64,000 nt of DNA, from the IMG/VR virus record IMGVR_UViG_3300042508_000526, one strand, 5' to 3'. The notes beneath the pieces were generated by a model that saw only the letters and a list, made by a program, of their open reading frames with translations, was not told the DNA's origin and ran no database searches. The translations under genes were made by a program, and so were the position numbers. The stretch comes from a virus (taxonomy: Duplodnaviria; Caudoviricetes). Positions 50,224 to 59,833 of this stretch are shown piece after piece; the stretch's first letter is position 1; every line of letters starts with the position of its first letter.

Positions 50224-50265
50224 GATTAACCTCAAAAATAACGTAGCCCGTCGTCAGCCTCCGAA

Positions 50266-50408
50266 TTGACCGGGCGGGAATTGCACCCGCTATGTACCTC
50301 ACCACCACGCTGTGTATATCGCCGCGTCCGGCTAGGTCAAGCACGGGGCTGTTGGGTACCGGCACACCAAAGTGCCGCTTTAGTCGCTGTCACTAAAGAG
50401 CCGATCAA
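50266..50408 (-). ncRNA. 143-nt tRNA-like RNA with oversized variable region
   Basis: UUGAUCGG/CCGGUCAA 8-bp terminal stem; CUUUAGU/ACUAAAG hairpin; CGGCAC-UUUGGU-GUGCCG hairpin; GUACC/GGUAC-closed insert of about 65-70 nt; T-arm GCGGG-UGCAAUU-CCCGC. Fills most of an ORF-free gap. Confidence 0.6.
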
Positions 50409-50412
50409 AATG

Positions 50413-50676
50413 TTATTTTGTTCTCTCCAGCAGCGCAAGAAGCGTGTCAACATCTTTGCGCCAACCGTGTTGATCCAACCAAAACGCAACTCGATCAATC
50501 GCCTCCCGCTCCTCGTCCGTGAGCGTGGCGTCCATCGTCACCGTCACGTTCCCGTCGCACACTGACAGCGTAGCGTCTTGATCGGCGAGGCGGCGGATGG
50601 CCTCGCGGTGCTTCTCTAATTCTTCCGCCAGTAATTTGTTCTCTGTGCGGAGATTTGTAAGTTCGCAGTCAGTCAT
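50413..50676 (-). CDS. Conserved phage hypothetical protein
   Basis: LADQDATLSVCDGNVTVTMDATLTDEEREAI motif. Confidence 0.7.
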   Translation of the reverse strand: MTDCELTNLRTENKLLAEELEKHREAIRRLADQDATLSVCDGNVTVTMDATLTDEEREAIDRVAFWLDQHGWRKDVDTLLALLERTK

Positions 50677-50929
50677 CGCGCGTTACTCCCTGTAAACGCA
50701 AGTCAGAATTTGCACCCATTGTTGCCGCCATACTTCGAAACTGTTCGCGTTGCATAGCCATAAAAGTCTCGTTTGATACTTTGCGCACCATCATGTTGAT
50801 ACGCGCCGGAATCACAATATTGTTGTCGCAGTCGTTGCAGCAGCGCCCGTGATTAACCGGCGCCGCGTTGTTGCCAGAATCCCAGCCGTTGACGCTGGGA
50901 ATGTCGTTGAAACAGATTGAACAGAGCAT
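50669..50929 (-). CDS. Small Zn-finger protein
   Basis: CSIC...GNNAAPV..GRCCNDC...VIPAR. Confidence 0.7.
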   Translation of the reverse strand: MLCSICFNDIPSVNGWDSGNNAAPVNHGRCCNDCDNNIVIPARINMMVRKVSNETFMAMQREQFRSMAATMGANSDLRLQGVTRDD

Positions 50930-50948
50930 TCAAAACTCCACTAATTTG

Positions 50949-51212
50949 CTACCACTCACCAGAATGAAAACGGCTGCCGTGATACGCCGCATCAGTTGAT
51001 TCTTGCGGAGAACCGCCATACGAACGTCGCGAACCCCCGCGCAAACACATATCGCACCACGGACCAGAGCCGCGAAACTCTTCAATGAGTTTTTTGGCAT
51101 CGACGGTCATTTTGTCGTTGCAACCTTTGCAGTACGCATAAAACAGCCCGTCTGGTTTTGCTCGCCTTTGAGCAAATTGAACAAGTTGCACTTCTGTGTT
51201 GTCAGCGCTCAT
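50949..51212 (-). CDS. Small Zn-finger protein
   Basis: CKGC...CDMC, GGAGG SD. Confidence 0.6.
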   Translation of the reverse strand: MSADNTEVQLVQFAQRRAKPDGLFYAYCKGCNDKMTVDAKKLIEEFRGSGPWCDMCLRGGSRRSYGGSPQESTDAAYHGSRFHSGEW

Positions 51213-51223
51213 AAACCCTCCAA

Positions 51224-51294
51224 ATGCCCGACTAGGATTCGAACCTAGACAAAGGGAACCAAAATCCCTTGTGCTACCGTTACACCATCGGGCA
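51224..51294 (-). tRNA. tRNA-Gln (anticodon UUG), CCA not encoded
   Basis: TGCCCGA/TCGGGCA acceptor, D-arm TGGTGTAACGGTAGCAC, AGGGA-TTTTGGT-TCCCT, CTAGG-TTCGAAT-CCTAG. Confidence 0.95.
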
Positions 51295-51314
51295 ACCGGG
51301 TTACCCCGAAAACG

Positions 51315-51587
51315 TTAATCTTTGTCTATTGTGTTGACGTTGTCGTTAAAGCTGACGAACTCGCCACCTTCGCCGTCAAACAATATGCCGGGTTCGCCGG
51401 GCATGTCAGCCGTTGCACGCCGTGCGTATTTAGTTAGAAACCGATAAATGTCGCGGCCGCGTTTTTCGCCGTACTTGAGGCAGAGTAAAGCTTTGACCGT
51501 CAAATACTCCTCAAAGCCAGCCTCCTCGTTTTCCTCGGCATAAAGATTGTCGTCGTTCAGGAACTCGCCGAAGTCAAAATTTGTCAT
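51315..51587 (-). CDS. Hypothetical protein
   Basis: Likely start MTNFDF at 51587. Confidence 0.6.
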   Translation of the reverse strand: MTNFDFGEFLNDDNLYAEENEEAGFEEYLTVKALLCLKYGEKRGRDIYRFLTKYARRATADMPGEPGILFDGEGGEFVSFNDNVNTIDKD

Positions 51588-51592
51588 GAAAA

Positions 51593-52747
51593 TTAATCCA
51601 GTATGTTGAGCACTACCGCGCATTGCGGTAGCGGAAATAAGTAAACACCGCGCGCAGAAAACTGCCGCGGATACTCTAGCCGCATCACAACGTTATCGTC
51701 GTACATAAGGCGGGCCACTACGTACGACCCTGTGACGGCGGTCAGCGCGTCAAGCACAACGACAAACTCTGTGCCGGGCACAGCAATTCGGACCGATGCG
51801 CCGTGCGGACCAGTAGCGCCAGTGACTCCAAGATTAGCAGCTTCAGTTGCTGCGTCAATGACCGTCTCTAATGACGCCACGGCCGAACGCTGCGCAGACA
51901 CAAGCATTAGCTGGCGCGAAAACGCTACCGTGGCTGCAGCTGTCAGCGCTGCGGCTTTTGCGTCGTTCAGAACGGCGAGGATTTTGAGATCCTTTGCCGC
52001 CGCGCCGCAGAAAGCCAATAACGCGGGGCAAACCTCGGCATAGTCTTCTGCCGTATTTGTTACGCGTACCGATTCGTCGTCTTTTGCCCGCGTCACAAAC
52101 TCGCCGCTCTCAAGAATAATATGCCACGTATTTGTACCGTTATCGAATGCGATGCCGCGTAAAGACGGGCCCATGTCGCCGTTAGGCAGCGCGTCACGAA
52201 ATACGACAAGGCTGGCTTCAAGCTCGGCGGCAAACGTGTCAGTAAAACCAAACGCGGCTGGCTTAAAAACGCGCGCCAACATGCGCTCGTTGTATACCTC
52301 GGGCGCCACGACCGGCTCGGCATAAAACGATTTGTTTTGCGCCAGCTCGGCAATCTCTGCGATCACAGCGTCGAACAGGTCGGCAGGATTGATGTCCTGC
52401 GACATTAAGCCGTCGCCAATCATATCTGAAAATACAGCCAGCGCTTCCAGCAATACAGCGTCTACCTGCTCGGGTTTTGCGCCGTACTGCGCTGCTACCT
52501 GCTTGCCGCGGCCAAGCGTTGCCTGCGTAATCGAAAAAGGCAGTGCGCCCCAGTTTGTACTGCCGGCTGCCTGTGCAAACTGCCCAAGTGCTTTTAGAAA
52601 CGCTGGATTCTTTGCCGGCATCTGAGACTGACGAAATAGCTCAAGCGTGCAAGCGGCAAGTGTGAGTTTTTGTTGGGCAGGTGCGTCAAAACTATCTAAG
52701 AACTTTTTAATCGTGACTGATGTTTTCTGTCGTGGTGCAGTTGTCAT
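51593..52747 (-). CDS. Hypothetical protein
   Basis: About 384 aa, Ala-rich and helical; no family recognised. Confidence 0.7.
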   Translation of the reverse strand: MTTAPRQKTSVTIKKFLDSFDAPAQQKLTLAACTLELFRQSQMPAKNPAFLKALGQFAQAAGSTNWGALPFSITQATLGRGKQVAAQYGAKPEQVDAVLLEALAVFSDMIGDGLMSQDINPADLFDAVIAEIAELAQNKSFYAEPVVAPEVYNERMLARVFKPAAFGFTDTFAAELEASLVVFRDALPNGDMGPSLRGIAFDNGTNTWHIILESGEFVTRAKDDESVRVTNTAEDYAEVCPALLAFCGAAAKDLKILAVLNDAKAAALTAAATVAFSRQLMLVSAQRSAVASLETVIDAATEAANLGVTGATGPHGASVRIAVPGTEFVVVLDALTAVTGSYVVARLMYDDNVVMRLEYPRQFSARGVYLFPLPQCAVVLNILD

Positions 52748-53900
52748 ATGAATTTGTTCCGCTAAATACTGCGTCACATGTGTGTAGAAGTGTGATTAAA
52801 TTTGCGCGATATGCGCCGTCAAGTTTGTAACTGGTGCCGCCGTGGCTGCGAACGTAATTGTGAAAATCTGATTGAACATGGTTGTCGATAGATACGACTG
52901 TAAACGGACCTGCAGCGGCGCCGCAGGCTGTGGCACGCGCTTGCAAAAACATATGCAAGCCGCGCATAGCGTTGCCTATAAGCAGCACTACGCCGTTTTG
53001 CGTTGCACATAGCTGACGAACTTGCTCAGCAAATATCAAAAGATCAACATACGTTGCAGCGCCAATAGCCGCGCCCAGCTCGGCGCCACGCACAGCCGGA
53101 CCTGTATGCGCGCGCAATTCTCCCAGCTCGACATGCGCCGTGGCCGGAAGACCCAACGAATACGCGGCATGAAATAGGCTGCGCGCTTTGTTGTCTTTCG
53201 GTGCAAACGCCCATCGGCCTGTCGCCTCTCCGTATCCTATACCCTGCGCAGCCGCAAGGCGAGCAACGTGATTCAGATCTGGGGGCGTGTCTGGTCGCGT
53301 CATCTCAATGTCCGCCAGCAAACCGGCACCAGTCGTTGCCGCAGCCGTGGCGTACCGTTTGCGCAGCCATTCGGCGGCAACGATGCCGGCGCCGGCGTAG
53401 ATAGCCTCTGCGCCGATAAACAATAAAACGTTGCTGTCTGCGCTGCGAGCGCAATGAACAGCTTTTGCTGCCAGTACGTGCGTTTCGGATGCTGTAGCCG
53501 GCGTGTCAACTACTTCAGGCGGCATTATTTGCGTCAACGGCCAAGCCGCTGTCTGGGTTTCAAAAACAGGAAAAGAACTTTCAAGCCTAAGCGGCAAATG
53601 TAACGACAGATCTACATCCGCTGTTGCGTGGGCAGACCGCATATCGCCGTCGCCCAAAAGTAACCACTCAAACCGGACATCGGTGAAGGCGACGACTTGC
53701 GCCAGTACTTCAGGCGTAACAGCAATCTCGCCAAGCAGAATGCGCGCCACATGTTTAGAGTCCAGCTGGATCGCCGCGGCGAAAGCGCGGACATCATTTC
53801 CAAACAACACAGCGCATACGTACTCAAGTCTCTGCCGCCATGGCTGATTCGATTGACGTAGCTTGCGTTGTGTCCGTCTTCTCTTCGGCTTCTGTGACAT
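52707..53900 (-). CDS. XRE-like HTH fused to a deoxyhypusine-synthase-like domain
   Basis: N-terminal FAAAIQLDSKHVARIL...VRFEWLLLGDGDM; C-terminal VLLFIGAEAIYAG, TTGAGLLAD, GIGYGEATG, SLFHAAYSLGLPATAHVELG, GVVLLIGNAM. Confidence 0.55.
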   Translation of the reverse strand: MSQKPKRRRTQRKLRQSNQPWRQRLEYVCAVLFGNDVRAFAAAIQLDSKHVARILLGEIAVTPEVLAQVVAFTDVRFEWLLLGDGDMRSAHATADVDLSLHLPLRLESSFPVFETQTAAWPLTQIMPPEVVDTPATASETHVLAAKAVHCARSADSNVLLFIGAEAIYAGAGIVAAEWLRKRYATAAATTGAGLLADIEMTRPDTPPDLNHVARLAAAQGIGYGEATGRWAFAPKDNKARSLFHAAYSLGLPATAHVELGELRAHTGPAVRGAELGAAIGAATYVDLLIFAEQVRQLCATQNGVVLLIGNAMRGLHMFLQARATACGAAAGPFTVVSIDNHVQSDFHNYVRSHGGTSYKLDGAYRANLITLLHTCDAVFSGTNSYDNCTTTENISHD

Positions 53901-54903
53901 GTTCGCGCCTCGCTTTAAATTGCTCCAGCAGCGATCGGCCTACACGTCGAAACACGCCGGTGCCGGAAACGGTGTGCATACCGTCTACAGCGCGCAAATA
54001 CGCCGCAGTCAGTTCCGCATAACCAGTTAACAGTTCAATGGGATACCGGTTGAATTGCCCCAACATAAAGTAAAAATCTGTGTCGGGAGAATCGTAGCAA
54101 TCGGCAATTTTAATTGAACGCAGATACGTTACCCGCCCGCCATGCGGTCGAACGAGCGGCAGCTTGGTTTTAGGGTAGTGCAGCAAAAACTGTCGCGTCT
54201 CAATTATCCAGCCGGTGTCTGTCGGCACAACAGCTATGCGCCACATTGACCCAAGCGTTTTTCGATTTAGCGCTTTTGTGCAGCGCTGATACAGCGAACG
54301 TTCGCGCCGAAGCTCGCCCCACAACAGGCGCTCATATTGCCCGACCTGCTCATGAGAGCAACCAAACACCGCGTCAAATCCGGGCGCCAAAAGAACGCGG
54401 CTAGTAACGCGACATGTGACAATAAGTTTTGTTTTAGCGTTGTGCTTACCGATCTGTCGAACTTTGTGCCGCACGCTCACATACTGCGCTTGACTGATAC
54501 GTGCGAAACAGAACGGGCAGAAATACGACCGGTGACACGGACGAAACACCTTTTCTTTCTTCCAATGAAAGTAGAGGTATGACGGCCGGCAGAACAGGCA
54601 GCGCTGAAACGATAGCGCAAAATTTTTCAGGTCAAAATCGGCCGCGTACGGGTCTAGCGCGCGAGAATGTGGAAACCACAGATTGCGGGTGGCCAATTCT
54701 TTTAATCGACGAGCCCAATGATTTCGCACTGTGTTCGTGCGCCCGACTACCGCCCCGTGCGTTTTCTTGCCGTCTAGGTTTAATACAAATTGCTGCGCAA
54801 AAGTCTGAGACATCCGGCGCCCGACTCGCGCAATTTTCCACGGCCGCAATGCGTAGCGGCTGACATGCGCCACAAAATCGAACAGCGCCATCAAAAACTC
54901 CAC
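53824..54903 (-). CDS. Cys-rich protein resembling a degenerate HUH/rolling-circle Rep
   Basis: CLFC...PCHRSYFCPFC, LIVTCR, GSMWRIAV...GWIIETRQFLL, AVDGMHTVSGTGVFR in Rep-like order; HUH histidines absent. Confidence 0.4.
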   Translation of the reverse strand: MEFLMALFDFVAHVSRYALRPWKIARVGRRMSQTFAQQFVLNLDGKKTHGAVVGRTNTVRNHWARRLKELATRNLWFPHSRALDPYAADFDLKNFALSFQRCLFCRPSYLYFHWKKEKVFRPCHRSYFCPFCFARISQAQYVSVRHKVRQIGKHNAKTKLIVTCRVTSRVLLAPGFDAVFGCSHEQVGQYERLLWGELRRERSLYQRCTKALNRKTLGSMWRIAVVPTDTGWIIETRQFLLHYPKTKLPLVRPHGGRVTYLRSIKIADCYDSPDTDFYFMLGQFNRYPIELLTGYAELTAAYLRAVDGMHTVSGTGVFRRVGRSLLEQFKARREHVTEAEEKTDTTQATSIESAMAAET

Positions 54904-54906
54904 TGG

Positions 54907-55179
54907 CTATTTATGCCAATCGCCCATGTACCGCACGGCGATGTACGTTCCTAAAAATGCGCCTATCGCCAACGGAATGAGATAGAGCGCGTTGTGCAGA
55001 TAATTCATGACGCCGTACGCGCCTAAGCTATACAAGACAGAGCTAATGACGCTCGCCGCTACCGCTTGCCGGCGGCTCACACAAATGACGTACAGCGCGT
55101 ACAGGATGTCAAAAAAGACATAGACAACAAAAACTGTTGCAGCTGTCGCCCAATTAAAGTCGTTCATTTTTCTGCTCAA
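54907..55179 (-). CDS. Small three-helix membrane protein
   Basis: Three hydrophobic segments; GAFLGTY motif. Confidence 0.7.
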   Translation of the reverse strand: MSRKMNDFNWATAATVFVVYVFFDILYALYVICVSRRQAVAASVISSVLYSLGAYGVMNYLHNALYLIPLAIGAFLGTYIAVRYMGDWHK

Positions 55180-55375
55180 ACATTGCGTCGCGCACTGTTT
55201 GAAACAACTCCTCTCGTGTCATTGTGCCGGCGAGAAAAGCAGCTGCCGTATCACGCACGTTTTCAAAGTGCGCGACTTTTTTTCGCAGCGCCGCGATCGT
55301 TTGACTTTGTTTAATAAACCGCTGCTGCAGCTCAGTAAATTGCTGTGCCGGAACAGCATCGTTCACGTTTTCCAT
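55154..55375 (-). CDS. Small coiled-coil protein
   Basis: 73 aa, GGAGG SD. Confidence 0.55.
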   Translation of the reverse strand: MENVNDAVPAQQFTELQQRFIKQSQTIAALRKKVAHFENVRDTAAAFLAGTMTREELFQTVRDAMFEQKNERL

Positions 55376-55668
55376 GCTGGTGAAGCCTCCGTGATTGAAC
55401 TGTCTGCAGGAATATCAGATTTTGGAAATGGATTGTCCCATTCCAACAACGTGCGCCGTTCTTCCCGCAACAGCGCTATCTCGTGACGCTGCGTTCGAAT
55501 CTCGGTGCGCAACGATTGATTTACGTTTTTCAGATCCCGCACTTTAGCACGCAGTTCTTGCAGTTCTTCCGCGTGATCATGCAGCTCCGCAACTGCTTTT
55601 TGATATCTCAGTTCGCCTTTAAGCCGTAGTACCTCTAAACGCAATTTTGCCGTATCGGCGTCATCCAT
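55363..55668 (-). CDS. Coiled-coil hypothetical protein
   Basis: 101 aa with heptad pattern, AGGAG SD. Confidence 0.65.
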   Translation of the reverse strand: MDDADTAKLRLEVLRLKGELRYQKAVAELHDHAEELQELRAKVRDLKNVNQSLRTEIRTQRHEIALLREERRTLLEWDNPFPKSDIPADSSITEASPAWKT

Positions 55669-55690
55669 GACGGCTCCTACAGATAGTGGT

Positions 55691-56230
55691 TCAAGTTTCC
55701 TTGACGAAAATGCCTTCGGGCGTCAACCGGCCTTTGCGATCTTTAATCGTTTTGTACGCCTCTTCAAGACACAGCCGCAAACTCATCGCGGGGTCGTACA
55801 GGTTTGCGCACAGAATAAGCGTAACAAGTACGTCGCCGATCCCGTCGACAACACCGTCGCCGTCATCTTTCAATAACGCGTCGGCTAATTCGCCCAGCTC
55901 TGACATCGTTTTCAGCAGCTGAACTCTTGGGTTGCTGTTCGGGATGATGTGCCGATCCCGCGCCCACTGAATGACTTTTTCTTCCAACTCGGTAAATGAT
56001 GGGTGCATGTTGTGCTTCTCCTTGTGTTTTTCTGCGGCATGCTCCAGCGCTTGATCATGCGCTGACAATAATTCAAGTGCGTAAAGCCTGAGCTGTTTTT
56101 GCAATTGCTCACGCTCTGGACGCAGCAAATTTAATAGCGCCAAAACGCTACGCATTTCCTGCGCTGACAACTCGCCCATATGCAAGCGAATAGCTTGCTT
56201 GTCGCCGGCCCATATTGGTTCAAGATTCAT
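55691..56230 (-). CDS. mazG: MazG-like nucleotide pyrophosphohydrolase with N-terminal extension
   Basis: WARDR...QLLKTMSELGELADA...DGIGDVLVTL...AYKTIKDRKG. Confidence 0.85.
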   Translation of the reverse strand: MNLEPIWAGDKQAIRLHMGELSAQEMRSVLALLNLLRPEREQLQKQLRLYALELLSAHDQALEHAAEKHKEKHNMHPSFTELEEKVIQWARDRHIIPNSNPRVQLLKTMSELGELADALLKDDGDGVVDGIGDVLVTLILCANLYDPAMSLRLCLEEAYKTIKDRKGRLTPEGIFVKET

Positions 56231-56720
56231 TTACGTTTTCTTGCTCGGGCGCGGGTGTTTCTTCCGGCGGATCAACCGCGTCAGACATGCTCTCTAATTT
56301 GTTGCGTTGCAGTTCCATACGTTCGCGTACAAGTGCAATGCCTTGTGCGGCATCAGCAACCTCGACGTACGGTAATTTCTCTTTCAGGTGCTCCCACTTT
56401 GTCGGGCCTACGCCGGCAACATTAATCTCGCCCGGCGCTGCCTCCGCAAAGTCTTCCAGCAGCGCCACAGCCGTAGCGTCTTGCCGCGTTTGGAACACAA
56501 TAATGTTGTTGTCTTTGTCGGAAAAGAATTTAACGCCGGTATCGTCGCAGATAACGTAACGAGCGGCTTCTTCGCCGGTATCGATATAGCGCACCGGCTT
56601 CATGTAGCTGTTGGCGTGCTTTGACGCTTCTGGCGAACAGCACCGTTTAAATTTCTGGCCACTGCCGCACGGGCAACGGTCATTACGTTTTACAAAGCTG
56701 TTGCGACGAATCGTTGTCAT
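56220..56720 (-). CDS. SEC-C motif protein
   Basis: KRNDRCPCGSGQKFKRCC. Confidence 0.85.
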   Translation of the reverse strand: MTTIRRNSFVKRNDRCPCGSGQKFKRCCSPEASKHANSYMKPVRYIDTGEEAARYVICDDTGVKFFSDKDNNIIVFQTRQDATAVALLEDFAEAAPGEINVAGVGPTKWEHLKEKLPYVEVADAAQGIALVRERMELQRNKLESMSDAVDPPEETPAPEQENVNES

Positions 56721-56735
56721 TGTTCCTCCATGAAA

Positions 56736-57020
56736 TCAGTCAATCGTTACCGCGCTGGTCGTACGAACTTGAAACGCGTTTTTTGTTCTGTGCGCTGTTG
56801 GCACAAAATATTCGGGTGTGTCTGTTGCGCCGATCGTAGCCGGACCGTGAATGGCTACCGTGTCGCCGAGATAGACTTTGCCGGCGCACACAACGCAGGT
56901 TTTACCGTCTTCATACGGACTGCGCAGAACCACCTTTGGCGTCCCGGCTTCCAGCGTTAGACCCGTTGTTGCCTTCACAGGAATCTGCGTGGGAATGGTC
57001 ACAACACCCGGCTTTGGCAT
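56736..57020 (-). CDS. Hypothetical protein
   Basis: 94 aa, AGGAG SD. Confidence 0.6.
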   Translation of the reverse strand: MPKPGVVTIPTQIPVKATTGLTLEAGTPKVVLRSPYEDGKTCVVCAGKVYLGDTVAIHGPATIGATDTPEYFVPTAHRTKNAFQVRTTSAVTID

Positions 57021-57122
57021 CGTTAGGTGCTCCTAATTTGAATAGCCGACAGCATACCTTGCCGATATCGGTCGTCAATACAGCATTACCGTCAAACTGG
57101 TTGTCAAAAACGATGTGCATAG

Positions 57123-57929
57123 TTAACTCCTCGCGAGGTTGTTCACCCAGCGTGTTTTGATATGTTTAGTGCCTGTTGGGTACGCAAATATACTTTTGCG
57201 CTGCGCAACATTGGCCGGCTGATTTGCGCCATTGCAAAGGCGGCACTTGTTGCATTGAATCAGTTTGTTTATTTGTTCGTTTTGATGCGGGCATAAAACT
57301 TCGTTTGCCGCGGGACCGTCAACGCCTACACGATAGTGGCGCCAGCCAAGCGCCGCTGCACGGGGCATATCCTCGACGCGGTGCACGCTGGCCATGTAGT
57401 ACGGCCGATAGGCCTGATACTCGGGTTTCATCCATTGCTCGGTGAAACCGGTGTAGTTGCGACGCGATACGGTAACAAGTCGTTCCACAATTTCAAGCGG
57501 AATCAAAACCGGATCTCCGTAGGCGCCAAAGCGTACGCCCTTTGCCGCCACAATTCTGTCGTGGCGGTCTGGGTCGTAGTCCGGGTAGTTTCCGTTCTTG
57601 TAAGCGTTCCAGACCATCCGCGGCGCTTGATGCAGCTTGACGTAGCAAACCTGCACGAGCTTGCAGTCGCCGCAGACCAGCCGGTGCAAACCGCCGGCTC
57701 GGGCCTCTGTCGGCTTGAGCTTGTCCGCAAACAGCCAAACCTGACACGTGTCGCCCGTTTTGCGGTTGGTAGAGGTAAACGTCATCAGGATCACAATCTG
57801 GCTGTCAGCGTCGCTGGCGCCCTCTGGGGCCCAAGGACTGCGGCCGCGGTACAGCACACAGCCCGAAACTGTCTCCTGCCGAAGTTTGCGTTTTTTACGG
57901 GCTTTTTGCGCTTTTTTCGTGATCGTCAT
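57123..57929 (-). CDS. GP88-like Cys-rich phage protein (radical-SAM-like fold suspected)
   Basis: TNRKTG..Q, CGDC...CYV, VRFGAYGDP, TGFTEQW, MASV, CP...C.KC.LC; start MTITKK at 57929 (AGGA SD). Confidence 0.6.
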   Translation of the reverse strand: MTITKKAQKARKKRKLRQETVSGCVLYRGRSPWAPEGASDADSQIVILMTFTSTNRKTGDTCQVWLFADKLKPTEARAGGLHRLVCGDCKLVQVCYVKLHQAPRMVWNAYKNGNYPDYDPDRHDRIVAAKGVRFGAYGDPVLIPLEIVERLVTVSRRNYTGFTEQWMKPEYQAYRPYYMASVHRVEDMPRAAALGWRHYRVGVDGPAANEVLCPHQNEQINKLIQCNKCRLCNGANQPANVAQRKSIFAYPTGTKHIKTRWVNNLARS

Positions 57930-57949
57930 TGTCCTATCTAAAATCAGCG

Positions 57950-58345
57950 ACATTGGGGGGTAAAATGACCCCAAAATCTGTCGCAAATCGTTGAGGCCAC
58001 ATGACTTACGCTGCGCGCTTTACGCAAATTTTGTCCGATTTATGCGGACCTAGTGTAGGCTTCGCCTACAAGGTAGTTCTTTCTTAGAATTTTTTATTGG
58101 TAGCAGATGATCGGGGGCTGTTTGATTAGGCAGTTAAATACTGCCTTTTCAAATAGCGCCCCAATACGTTGTAATAAAGACCCCAACAGCCGAATTGCAC
58201 GGCTACACCACAGGGCATGAACCTTTAGTGACACGCGTTTGGGGTGACCAGTCTGTTTTCTGCGGAGTTCGGTAACGCAGCACGTGGAACAGACAAGTGA
58301 GTCCAGCTTTACTGGTCAAGAGGCTGCTGGACAAGCACTGGATAT
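57950..58345 (-). ncRNA. Highly structured ~400-nt intergenic region containing a tRNA-like minihelix
   Basis: GTCCAGC/GCTGGAC stem whose loop pairs with downstream CTGGTCA; acceptor-like stem plus AGCCG-TGCAATT-CGGCT (58180-58245); long rod hairpin (about 58108-58167); TGTAGGC-GAA-GCCTACA; GTCCG/CGGAC; GGGGT/ACCCC. Confidence 0.5.
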
Positions 58346-58346
58346 C

Positions 58347-58392
58347 AAAAAAAAAGACAACGGTAGGGGCGGGTAATTAAACCCGCCCCTAC
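58347..58392 (-). terminator. Intrinsic terminator
   Basis: Perfect 12-bp stem gtaggggcgggt / acccgcccctac, 6-nt loop, 9-U tract 7 nt downstream on the minus strand; just after the stop at 58409. Confidence 0.8.
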
Positions 58393-58408
58393 GCGTTTAT
58401 CTTATTGT

Positions 58409-59833
58409 TCAACGGGTAATGCTTTTGGCATTGCCTGCTGCTTTTACAGACTTCAACCGCTGTTTCGGTCCAAGTCGCTTAGCCAGCGCAGCGTTCATTT
58501 CAGCAATGAACCGCTTGCGCTCGTTTTCATCCTGAATGCTTGGCGCAACGTGAAACAGTTGCCGCAACTCAGGCGGGCAGTCGGCCCAATTGCTACTTCG
58601 CGCTTTTGGCTGCGGTACGCTGGCCAGATACAGCCGGCGCATCGCGGCAGCGTAATTGTGATACCGTTTCGACTCGTCTCGCGAGATCGACGCTTCAGGA
58701 ATCTGCATTTCCACCGTAAGTAGCGCCGGAGACATTTCCTTAGCAAGTTCCTCGATGCGCGACAGAACGTCGGGGCGCGAGAACATATGCTTCAGGCCAA
58801 TGTCGTGCATGTACCCCGGCCGCTCGTAATAAGCGATCAGGTGACACAGTCCGCCAAAGAAGTTTTGCTTCAGGGCTTCTTTGTGCTTGTACAGACCTTC
58901 GCACGCCGGATCTGTAATCAGCTGCAGCGCGCGGCGCACGTCCTTTTCCGTGATCCACGGAAAATGATATCGTGCTCCGTCGCACATGTGCATGATGATT
59001 TTGCCGTTAGCAAAGCGCGGCCAGCCGCGCTTGTTTGGCGGTGCGGACGCATCTAGCCCGTACTCAGCAGCCAGTTCCACCGCTTTGACGACTTCCTCGT
59101 CGCCGGCGATGTACATGTTACGCCAGCTGTCGCTTCCGGCCATCGGTCGCTTGCCGTCGTCGTTGTTCTTTGAGAACGACGTAGCAACTTCGGCCATCGA
59201 CGCTACCGGCGCAACCTGCACCTGTATTTTGATGGGGTTCTTACCCGTGCGCAGATCGTCCGGCCGATCCGCGTAGGCAAGCTCCATCTGGATTCGCGTG
59301 CGATGCCAGCCGTCTGGCACTTCAAACCGCACGGTGACTAGTCGGCCGTTTTCATAGATAGGCCGCATGTTTACAAGCGGCGGCGTCATGCTTGGCGCAT
59401 GATAGTGCTGCACGATGTAACCGATGTGTCCCTTGTCTACGCGTTTTTCACGCCCGATACCGTCTGCCGGAAAATCGAGCATCGTCCACGGAATTGCAAA
59501 CGGGATGCCACCCGTATTTACAACGTCCGCCGGCTGCGCCCTCAACGCACGGGTAATCTCGTTAAACAACGCGATCCTCGCGGTCGGTGGCGCGCTAACA
59601 GTTGCCGGCACGTCGTGCAAGATCTCTTCATACAGCGCAACAAACACGCCCGTTTCGCCGGACTTGCGGTGCTTCCACGCCAGCTGCTTTGGCCGGATTG
59701 TTTCACCGGTCATTTCTACATCTTCATCGTCCATGTCTACCTCGCGCGCTTCTACGTAGGCGTCGTGACGCGCAACTGCAGTCTTACGTGCTGCGCGCTT
59801 TTTAGCCATACGACGGTTGCTTGCGTGTCCCAT
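58409..59833 (-). CDS. ParB-N/Srx-like domain protein (DUF6551-like)
   Basis: PPLVN...FEVPDGWHR, AEVATSF..NN, RP...SDSWR....AGD pattern. Confidence 0.65.
   Translation of the reverse strand: MGHASNRRMAKKRAARKTAVARHDAYVEAREVDMDDEDVEMTGETIRPKQLAWKHRKSGETGVFVALYEEILHDVPATVSAPPTARIALFNEITRALRAQPADVVNTGGIPFAIPWTMLDFPADGIGREKRVDKGHIGYIVQHYHAPSMTPPLVNMRPIYENGRLVTVRFEVPDGWHRTRIQMELAYADRPDDLRTGKNPIKIQVQVAPVASMAEVATSFSKNNDDGKRPMAGSDSWRNMYIAGDEEVVKAVELAAEYGLDASAPPNKRGWPRFANGKIIMHMCDGARYHFPWITEKDVRRALQLITDPACEGLYKHKEALKQNFFGGLCHLIAYYERPGYMHDIGLKHMFSRPDVLSRIEELAKEMSPALLTVEMQIPEASISRDESKRYHNYAAAMRRLYLASVPQPKARSSNWADCPPELRQLFHVAPSIQDENERKRFIAEMNAALAKRLGPKQRLKSVKAAGNAKSITR

Follow-up and report, generated by a model that had tools for sequence, protein, structure and literature searches.

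The DNA analysed here, a 64,000-nucleotide (nt) stretch from the IMG/VR virus record IMGVR_UViG_3300042508_000526 (Caudoviricetes; hereafter the window), is part of a ~200-kb phage that is frequent in lake-water metagenomes. The genes around two of its intergenic sites all lie on the minus strand, and each site holds an element encoded on that strand: RNA1, shaped like a class II transfer RNA (tRNA), and RNA2, which resembles tRNA(CAU) and has no D-arm. Both fold as tRNA-derived RNAs, occupy recognisable slots in the phage gene order and occur in relatives independently of one another, and RNA2 belongs to a tRNA(CAU) family. Two segments of RNA1 (motifs A and B) are complementary to two segments of RNA2 (motifs A' and B'), and for this pair, taken as pre-specified, the complementarity is real, non-random and specific. 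The elements and their parts are given below; R3 is a covariance model, W and L are alleles of RNA2, and L001 is a contig of the closest relative.

50266–50408, minus strand: RNA1, a 143-nt tRNA-derived RNA (predicted fold and covariation).
50378–50398, minus strand: hairpin H1 of RNA1, CUUUAGU / loop GACAGCG / ACUAAAG; a compensatory change within the hairpin gives C:G in the other copies for U:A in the window.
50360–50377, minus strand: hairpin H2 of RNA1, 6 base pairs (bp) with the 6-nt loop UUUGGU; one A:U to G:C change.
50294–50359, minus strand: H3, the 66-nt long arm of RNA1, closed by GUACC/GGUAC; the closing helix and the apical GCCG/CGGC both show compensatory changes.
50274–50290, minus strand: T-arm of RNA1, GCGGG, loop UGCAAUU, CCCGC; its stem is the T-stem of the relatives' tRNA-Leu; local match to R3 with 14.4 bits, E 0.12.
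58180–58245, minus strand: RNA2 (allele W), a 66-nt D-arm-less tRNA(CAU)-like RNA (covariation against L001; match to R3).
58223–58233, minus strand: motif B' of RNA2, comprising the end of the single-stranded linker and the 5' strand of the anticodon-like stem; two allele L substitutions are compensated within RNA2.
58182–58191, minus strand: motif A' of RNA2, comprising the 3' strands of T-stem and acceptor; three allele L substitutions are compensated in the T-stem 5' strand.

The initial annotation had placed four motifs in two minus-strand, tRNA-like elements, a description that the folds and the covariation support, and all four motifs are exact: ggctgttggg (A, 50347–50356) and tgtcactaaag (B, 50388–50398) in RNA1, and cccaacagcc (A', 58182–58191) and ctttagtgaca (B', 58223–58233) in RNA2. 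The spacing is 31 nt in both elements and, as described, the pairing can be extended by GCG/CGC beyond a 1-nt bulge. Both were also said to carry the same T-arm on a helix of about 8 bp; the 5-bp stem with loop TGCAATT is exact, and is found at these two sites and nowhere else in the window, but the helix stacked on it has 8 bp in RNA1 and 7 bp in RNA2. Where the motif positions vary among relatives, the variation is compensated within the same RNA. In contigs from four lake-water sequencing runs, no strain variant was listed inside either core.

Double 10-mer reverse-complement matches at equal offsets occurred at a mean of 0.47 per shuffled window, with at least one in 35% of shuffles; the test required equal start offsets, serves as a background count and misses the 10 + 11 pair itself. 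Because such matches are common in shuffles, the pattern would be unremarkable if the whole window had been trawled for it. Pure coincidence, picked post hoc from a very large scan (~250,000 windows), is consistent with these counts, the more so as equal spacing is unnecessary for pairing. RNA1 and RNA2 were, however, treated as a pre-specified pair, having been singled out independently, inter alia by their shared rare loop. In dinucleotide shuffles of the pair, the probability of a run of at least 11 was 0.003–0.005 and that of a run of at least 10 was 0.011–0.019, and both together were seen in 0 of 20,000 shuffles. Real phage tRNAs, compared in 1,830 pairs, gave a run of at least 11 in 0.2% and two runs of at least 10 and at least 8 in none. 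The original estimate of a chance well below 1 in 1,000 therefore holds for the pair. RNA2 is likewise an outlier among 58 real tRNAs in accessibility-corrected energy (z about −4 to −5), and the matched segments are exactly helix strands of the tRNA architecture. We consider coincidence improbable as the whole explanation.

RNA1 is built of an 8-bp acceptor-like terminal helix, hairpins H1, H2 and H3 at the positions of the D-arm, anticodon arm and variable arm, and a T-arm. Across four copies, 98.9% of cells were paired and five pairs had changed on both sides, against 0 in slid controls. Motif B is made up of the H1 5' strand and four loop bases, and the H1 loop GACAGCG is unchanged in all six RNA1 copies. 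Motif A lies within H3, where it takes in two closing pairs, the internal loop CAACA, which is invariant, and another three pairs; CCCAACAGCC in H3 is also unchanged in 6/6 copies. The H2 loop, on the other hand, differs among copies (UUUGGU, UUUAGU, UUGAGU). It is like UUUUGGU, the anticodon loop of tRNA-Gln, with one U fewer, but its length of 6 nt and its variation make a fixed anticodon unlikely. In two records that carry RNA1 and lack RNA2, a second near-copy of motif A (CCCAACAGCA) lies on the same strand ~100 nt downstream of RNA1 (G004:147760–147769 and G003:9164–9173).

Homologs of RNA1 are ~90% identical in four IMG/VR records in which the neighbouring Mre11-like protein is just 60–62% identical, and another copy is present in L235. 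The best non-self matches of the RNA1 model were the relatives' class II tRNA-Leu genes, which aligned end to end: acceptor with acceptor, H1 with D-arm, H2 with anticodon arm, H3 with variable arm, and T-arm with T-arm, the T-stem being identical. In many relatives tRNA-Met(CAU) occupies the slot that RNA1 has here; it lies ~1.2 kb from the Mre11-like gene, on its upstream side, and the ribosome-binding 3' flank is shared. In L031 and L235, RNA1 lies directly downstream of tRNA-Gln, 1–2 nt away, a tandem whose layout suggests joint maturation of the two RNAs by tRNA-processing enzymes. In the window, four small open reading frames (50413–51223) separate tRNA-Gln from RNA1, in contrast to the adjacent RNA genes of L031 and L235; in the phage represented by L001 and L037 this whole segment is gone, RNA1 included.

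ARAGORN did not call RNA1, and no Rfam family matched it even at E ≤ 10. It is not a cloverleaf, having five helices and a 6-nt loop. With tRNA-Sec it shares the 8/5 helices and the long arm, but there is no UCA anticodon and no match to RF01852. Readings as transfer-messenger RNA (tmRNA), as a Y-RNA-like element and as tRNA-Sec were dropped for lack of Rfam support. Readings of RNA1 as an intron-containing or permuted tRNA, or as antisense to a tandem RNA2 junction, rested on similarities too weak to claim.

RNA2 comprises a 7-bp acceptor, an 8-nt linker, an anticodon-like arm with a 9-bp stem and the 7-nt loop UUCAUGC (U33-CAU-G37), and a T-arm with loop UGCAAUU. Compared with its homolog in L001, 97.7% of cells were paired and five pairs had changed on both sides (slid controls, 0); every stem substitution was compensated, those affected being a single acceptor pair, three T-stem pairs and two positions of the central 9-bp stem. 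In RNA2 and in the L001 homolog ~9 nt of the D-arm are gone, and the leftover D-stem strand CAC pairs with GUG, lengthening the anticodon-like stem. RNA2 has an A:U at the helix end and no encoded CCA. Like RNA1, it was not called by ARAGORN and matched no Rfam family even at E ≤ 10.

The loops UUCAUGC and UGCAAUU define a lineage of their own. A pattern scan anchored on both loops was run over metagenome contigs and cellular genomes, and 5 of 30 metagenome matches, and 0 of 22 genome matches, proved to be real. In the five further elements both loops are flanked by stems that differ and covary, and an acceptor helix closes the structure; two of them are tRNA-Met(CAU) by ARAGORN and Rfam (50.5 and 41.7 bits) and lie in dense arrays (11 tRNAs in 5 kb). 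In the cloverleaf of these five members, 15 of 21 pairs have changed on both sides, and none of 500 shuffles was as good. Position 1:72 is unpaired in four of the five, and two G:C pairs beside the anticodon loop are invariant. A covariance model (R3), built from the five independent members with the window excluded, finds RNA2 with 32.3 bits (E 1e-6), and in RNA1 matches the T-arm alone. RNA2 is thus a member of this tRNA(CAU) lineage with its D-arm deleted. Representatives of 185,579 cellular species yielded no family member in the pattern scan, so that the lineage is seen only on phage and metagenome contigs.

Three members are full length and encode a 3' ACCA (L204:4673–4746, L202:835–909 and L209:3179–3251). 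Initiator tRNAs were recognised by a 1:72 mismatch, three G:C pairs beside the anticodon loop and a CAU anticodon; the anticodon loop of the bacterial initiator is CUCAUAA, from which the family differs by U32, G37 and C38. The family combines initiator-like traits (the 1:72 mismatch in 4/5 members and two G:C pairs) with the unusual G37, C38 and T-loop G55. Most loop-pattern matches were coding look-alikes, such as a conserved coding stretch in Treponema and relatives (metagenome loci L196, L201, L210, L218 and L222, and Treponema genome loci), so that false positives of this class are to be expected in any RNA2 search of this kind.

Earlier, the two complementary stretches had been likened to the guides of box C/D RNAs, with the pair held by a Nop-like protein encoded at 44893–45873. 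Two complementary stretches of ~10 nt are all that this analogy has in its favour. No C box (RUGAUGA) occurs in either RNA or its surroundings; CUGA appears once, ~90 nt away from motif A in the region of the ribosome-binding site downstream of RNA1, and adjoins neither motif; and both RNAs are tRNA-shaped. Sequence comparison of the 326-amino-acid protein with Pfam, PHROG and PDB gave no match. The analogy has no support and is largely refuted, and we regard such a guide–target pair as scarcely credible.

The distribution of the two RNAs was determined among the relatives. RNA1 occurs without RNA2, as judged by BLAST and by two RNA2 models (R1 and R3), in G004 (205 kb, rated 100% complete) and in three partial records. 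RNA1 of G004 keeps both motifs, and its predicted binding to the RNA2 of the window (−5.1 and −5.1 kcal/mol) is like that of the window's RNA1; in G004 itself, complements of motif A do not exceed the control rate, and its RNA1 is predicted to bind none of the nine tRNAs encoded there (best, −2.1 kcal/mol). RNA2 occurs without RNA1 in the closest relative, whose contigs L001 and L037 share an identical overlap of 127 nt and together span ~201 kb; in this phage the next conserved gene comes immediately after tRNA-Gln. Neither RNA is present in at least eight near-complete relatives, and both are present in the window and in L235, the latter reached via homologs of the 474-amino-acid gene upstream of RNA2. 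Stricter pattern searches for RNA1 and RNA2 returned the known carriers alone. A 14-base pattern scan of IMG/VR gave 119 mostly random matches and was not used. In L002 and L238 the position of RNA2 is taken by tRNA-Thr. Because each RNA is present and conserved without the other, an obligate heterodimer is excluded.

RNA2 exists in two alleles. Allele W (window, L234, L235, L236 and L244) is identical at 70/70 positions, in loci whose coding DNA is just 66–75% identical and whose non-coding flanks are 83–90% identical. Allele L (L001 and L237) has 12–13 differences, ten of them in five compensated pairs, and contains no run of at least 7 nt complementary to any RNA1. Loss of the complementarity in close relatives had been named at the outset as the result that would speak against pairing. 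The outcome is split: L235, with both RNAs, retains it, and L001/L237, the closest relative, from which RNA1 is absent, has lost it. In L235, motif A is complementary over 11 nt, a lineage-specific G adding one, and motif B over 8 nt (11 nt in the window). The two genomes that hold both RNAs have identical RNA2, and the changes in RNA1 shorten B and lengthen A. Taken together, the two alleles give an impression of co-adaptation, which a control with an ordinary tRNA weakens. The identity of RNA2 requires no constraint in trans, since tRNA-Gln is equally invariant between the window and L235 (71/71); it matches at 67/71 positions in the L001/L037 phage. The argument that RNA2 is frozen because of RNA1 was dropped as specific evidence after this control. 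Allele L, in turn, has diverged about three times as far as the tRNA-Gln of its lineage, a comparison for which three lineages are informative.

The surroundings of the two elements contain the following further features.

50236–50412: site 1 intergenic gap, which holds RNA1.
57987–58408: site 2 intergenic gap, which holds RNA2.
51224–51294, minus strand: canonical tRNA-Gln(UUG), the sole tRNA found by general tools in the window.
58363–58392, minus strand: intrinsic terminator of the 474-amino-acid gene upstream of RNA2, a 12-bp stem followed by a T-run.
58247–58298, minus strand: nested hairpin just upstream of RNA2, GUCUGUU..CUGCG..CGCAG..AACAGAC; one compensatory pair against L001; kept in L235 and L001.

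The site 2 gap as a whole has a fold z of −6, and beyond RNA2 (57987–58178 and 58247–58345) it contains more conserved structure. Downstream of RNA2 there are a rod-like hairpin and two small hairpins, which are kept in L235 and L001 despite an insertion of ~200 nt in L001. The 474-amino-acid gene (58409–59833; homologs P0001–P0015) is mosaic: its L244 copy belongs to a different clade (56% identity), while the L244 locus outside this gene is 82–90% identical to L235. The tree of the protein is therefore unusable as a clock. Copies from other clades have tRNA-Thr downstream. Homologs of the 394-amino-acid middle gene were all distant, and the end genes of the L244 and L237 contigs led back to these same two contigs.

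A megablast search of INPHARED found no close deposited phage genome, and a sensitive blastn search matched tRNA-Gln alone. The nearest record, G001, is a 21.5-kb fragment that includes neither RNA site. About 40 IMG/VR relatives were reached via the Mre11-like gene, many of them as contigs of 190–205 kb. Relatives encode tmRNA (L192:938–1282, in record G014, and G004:9922–10269; tags GAYAPALAA and GAHAPALAA) within a tRNA array with Lys, Leu, Val, Ile(UAU), Glu and Leu genes. The tRNA-Gln genes compared (window 51224–51294, L235:13171–13241, L037:5833–5903 and L033:4639–4709) are discordant with genome relatedness: the window allele equals that of L235 (71/71), and L037 equals L033 (71/71) though these phages are distant. 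Such alleles suggest that tRNA genes are exchanged or under extreme constraint. Among the listed sequencing runs that hold this phage, whose host is uncultured, none is an RNA run.

Predicted binding energies were computed net of the cost of opening each structure. RNA1 and RNA2(W) gave −5.8 and −5.0 kcal/mol at the two sites, summing to −10.7 kcal/mol. Against the 58 real tRNAs, the best site of RNA1 averaged +0.85 ± 1.7 kcal/mol (minimum −5.2) and the two best sites summed to +4.8 ± 3.1 kcal/mol. Allele L gave +1.6 kcal/mol with RNA1, and the L235 pair −6.2 kcal/mol. Predicted binding is thus weak in absolute terms, at about −5 to −6 kcal/mol per site.

These energies bear on the possibility that pairing is facultative, RNA1 binding allele W of RNA2 so as to remodel, sequester or switch it. 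Contact would start between the invariant H1 loop GACAGCG and the RNA2 linker CGC-G-UGUC and proceed by strand exchange, which is possible because the H1 3' strand of RNA1 and the stem 5' strand of RNA2 are both ACUAAAG; A:A' would form the second contact. Apart from the two-site complementarity itself, far above chance, and the contrast in energy sums with the 58 tRNAs and with allele L, this reading is supported by L235, the second genome with both RNAs, where 11 + 8 nt of complementarity are kept. Allele W, moreover, accompanies RNA1 in both genomes in which both slots can be seen, whereas allele L, the faster-diverging one, lives without it. Several observations oppose it. The RNA1 of the complete G004 genome retains its motifs and its affinity with neither RNA2 nor any other partner; motif A' is fully buried, at an opening cost of 10.8 kcal/mol, and the two helices formed at once are computed to leave RNA2 nearly unfolded; and motif B has shrunk to 8 nt in L235. 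The informative lineages number three, the topology is crossed, and a very large scan yields some rare coincidences. We regard facultative pairing as possible, at a good deal less than an even chance. Its most explicit form would be a two-RNA system in which RNA1 recognises RNA2(W) by a loop–linker kiss, strand exchange at the missing D-stem and a T-stem/acceptor contact, switching RNA2 between a tRNA-like and an unfolded, sequestered state; this model we put forward tentatively and think rather unlikely. The proposal of the initial annotation is supported as regards the reality and specificity of the complementarity; pairing itself is at most a possibility, given that the motifs lie largely in helices that covary in cis, that each RNA occurs alone in relatives and that the predicted energy is weak.

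The reading that we favour, and judge to stand just short of even probability, is that both elements are autonomous tRNA-derived RNA genes and that neither needs the complementarity, a by-product of descent from cloverleaves with some admixture of chance. There is about an even chance that the complementarity has no function in trans, being a relic of shared cloverleaf ancestry and partly fortuitous; the remaining probability falls to forms of functional pairing. RNA2 arose within the tRNA(CAU) lineage by loss of ~9 nt of the D-arm, its anticodon stem being extended by the leftover D-stem strand. RNA1 derives from a tRNA and has the shape of class II: its T-loop is that of RNA2, its D-arm has been remodelled, its 6-nt loop probably does not decode, and its variable arm runs to 66 nt. 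It replaced a tRNA-Met(CAU) gene. Each RNA would fold alone, be cut from long minus-strand transcripts as a tRNA is, and act as a tRNA mimic or special tRNA.

The by-product route was read by eye, and it explains motif B better than motif A. In full family members the D-stem GUGA/UCAC is preceded by U8-A9. RNA1 has UAGUGA in the D-arm position and RNA2 keeps UCAC, so that the core of B:B', AGUGA:UCACU, reproduces the ancestral D-stem register. RNA1 may thus have kept the 5' strand of the D-stem and RNA2 the 3' strand, which would account for part of B:B'; for the rest, H1 pairs with its own ACUAAAG, a heptamer also found in RNA2 at the equivalent place. Motif A, for its part, resembles the acceptor 5' strand (CCCAA) joined to the T-stem 5' strand (AGCC) of RNA2, followed two bases on by GUGC as in RNA2. 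Built of 5' strands of RNA2 in this way, it would automatically be complementary to the contiguous T-stem/acceptor 3' strand.

The same D-stem register could be taken to mean that the two RNAs form a bimolecular tRNA, with G18–G26 of RNA1 pairing with C11–C20 of RNA2 at the place of the D-stem and rebuilding a cloverleaf-like core. The GUGA:UCAC pairing does correspond to the family register 10–13:22–25, and RNA2 alone has no D-stem 5' strand. The A:A' contact, however, would destroy the acceptor and T-arm of RNA2, at odds with a functional tRNA; the linker persists in allele L, which nevertheless lives without RNA1; and RNA2 is already stabilised on its own, with CAC paired to GUG. A bimolecular tRNA is, in our judgement, very improbable.

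The favoured reading, of autonomous RNAs with incidental complementarity, has several observations to contend with. The by-product route covers ~9 of the 11 bases of motif B and ~4 of the 10 of motif A, CCCAAC needing an extra rearrangement, and it does not explain the equal 31-nt spacing, which is left as coincidence. The homology of the RNA1 5' part to the family was likewise read by eye, R3 scoring no part of RNA1 other than the T-arm. The complementarity remains exceptional against both shuffles and real tRNAs. The accessible H1 loop of RNA1 faces the single-stranded linker of RNA2, as in known kissing complexes. In allele W the cis stem is weak, with one U.G and one A-G mismatch, where the trans duplex would be perfect; allele L, from a phage without RNA1, has nine perfect cis pairs and no complementarity. 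Finally, pairing at motif A reaches 11 bp in L235 through the lineage-specific G.

Phage tRNA genes are now viewed as weapons against host defences that cleave tRNA, and three features of this locus go beyond the ordinary. The first is a tRNA(CAU) lineage encountered on contigs of phages and metagenomes alone, with a changed anticodon loop and a G at the position of the near-universal pseudouridine 55. The second is RNA2, a member of that lineage that lacks a D-arm and yet is under structural selection, and the third RNA1, a tRNA-shaped RNA of 143 nt with a giant variable arm that is ~90% conserved where neighbouring proteins are ~60% identical. Should the pairing be functional, one tRNA-like RNA would here control another by base-pairing with it, to our knowledge for the first time, and would be an 'anti-tRNA', a regulator acting at the RNA level on a phage tRNA mimic. 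As a relic, the complementarity would be a record of how the tRNA arrays of phages make new structured RNAs from rearranged pieces of cloverleaf.

Several known systems can be compared with the two RNAs. T4 RNAC and RNAD are encoded among the tRNA genes of T4, and their ends are tRNA-like. These RNAs (species 1 and 2) are small, stable phage RNAs whose function is still unknown (PMC9697503). RNA1, at 143 nt, is similar to them in size and setting. For RNAC and RNAD themselves we know of no report of mutual complementarity. Like class II tRNAs and tRNA-Sec, RNA1 has 8/5 helices and a long arm at the variable position, and its model aligns with the relatives' tRNA-Leu(UAA); unlike them, it has a varying 6-nt loop, no UCA and a variable arm of 66 nt.

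Phage tRNAs with altered anticodon loops have been proposed to escape host anticodon nucleases (eLife 2023, PMC10264068). The RNA2 family resembles these in being tRNA(CAU) in dense phage-type arrays and in having UUCAUGC in place of the usual CUCAUAA, with changes at 32, 37 and 38; it differs in that RNA2 has no D-arm and no CCA, and in that the T-loop of the family is changed too (G55). By analogy, the loop change of the family would fit the idea of anticodon-nuclease escape. Mitochondrial tRNA-Ser(AGY) also has no D-arm, and works with specialised mitochondrial factors; we know of no D-arm-lacking tRNAs in bacteria or phages. RNA2 has the same parts, acceptor and T-arm together with a short connector that leads into a lengthened anticodon stem, and is at most a putative decoding tRNA.

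Other systems bring two RNAs together. Retroviral primer tRNAs, which are contacted at the primer-binding site and further upstream, and T-box leaders are cases of an RNA touching a tRNA at two places. RNA1 and RNA2 likewise have two sites in the same 5'-to-3' order, one being the T-stem/acceptor 3' strand. In contrast to those systems, the complementarity stops before the 3' end of RNA2 and there is no specifier or T-box sequence; no reverse transcriptase was seen in the window, which was not annotated in full. In the split tRNAs of Nanoarchaeum, two transcripts base-pair into one tRNA, each half contributing one acceptor strand, and the helices are nested. RNA1 and RNA2 are similarly two transcripts that could be joined by base pairing into a tRNA-like body, but each closes its own acceptor, with compensatory support, and the intermolecular helices would cross. 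CopA/CopT and RNA I/RNA II, finally, are transcribed from opposite strands of one locus and are fully complementary, unlike RNA1 and RNA2, which are neither. The 7-nt hairpin loop of RNA1 does, however, face an accessible complementary stretch from which a helix could propagate, much as in the kissing complexes of CopA/CopT.

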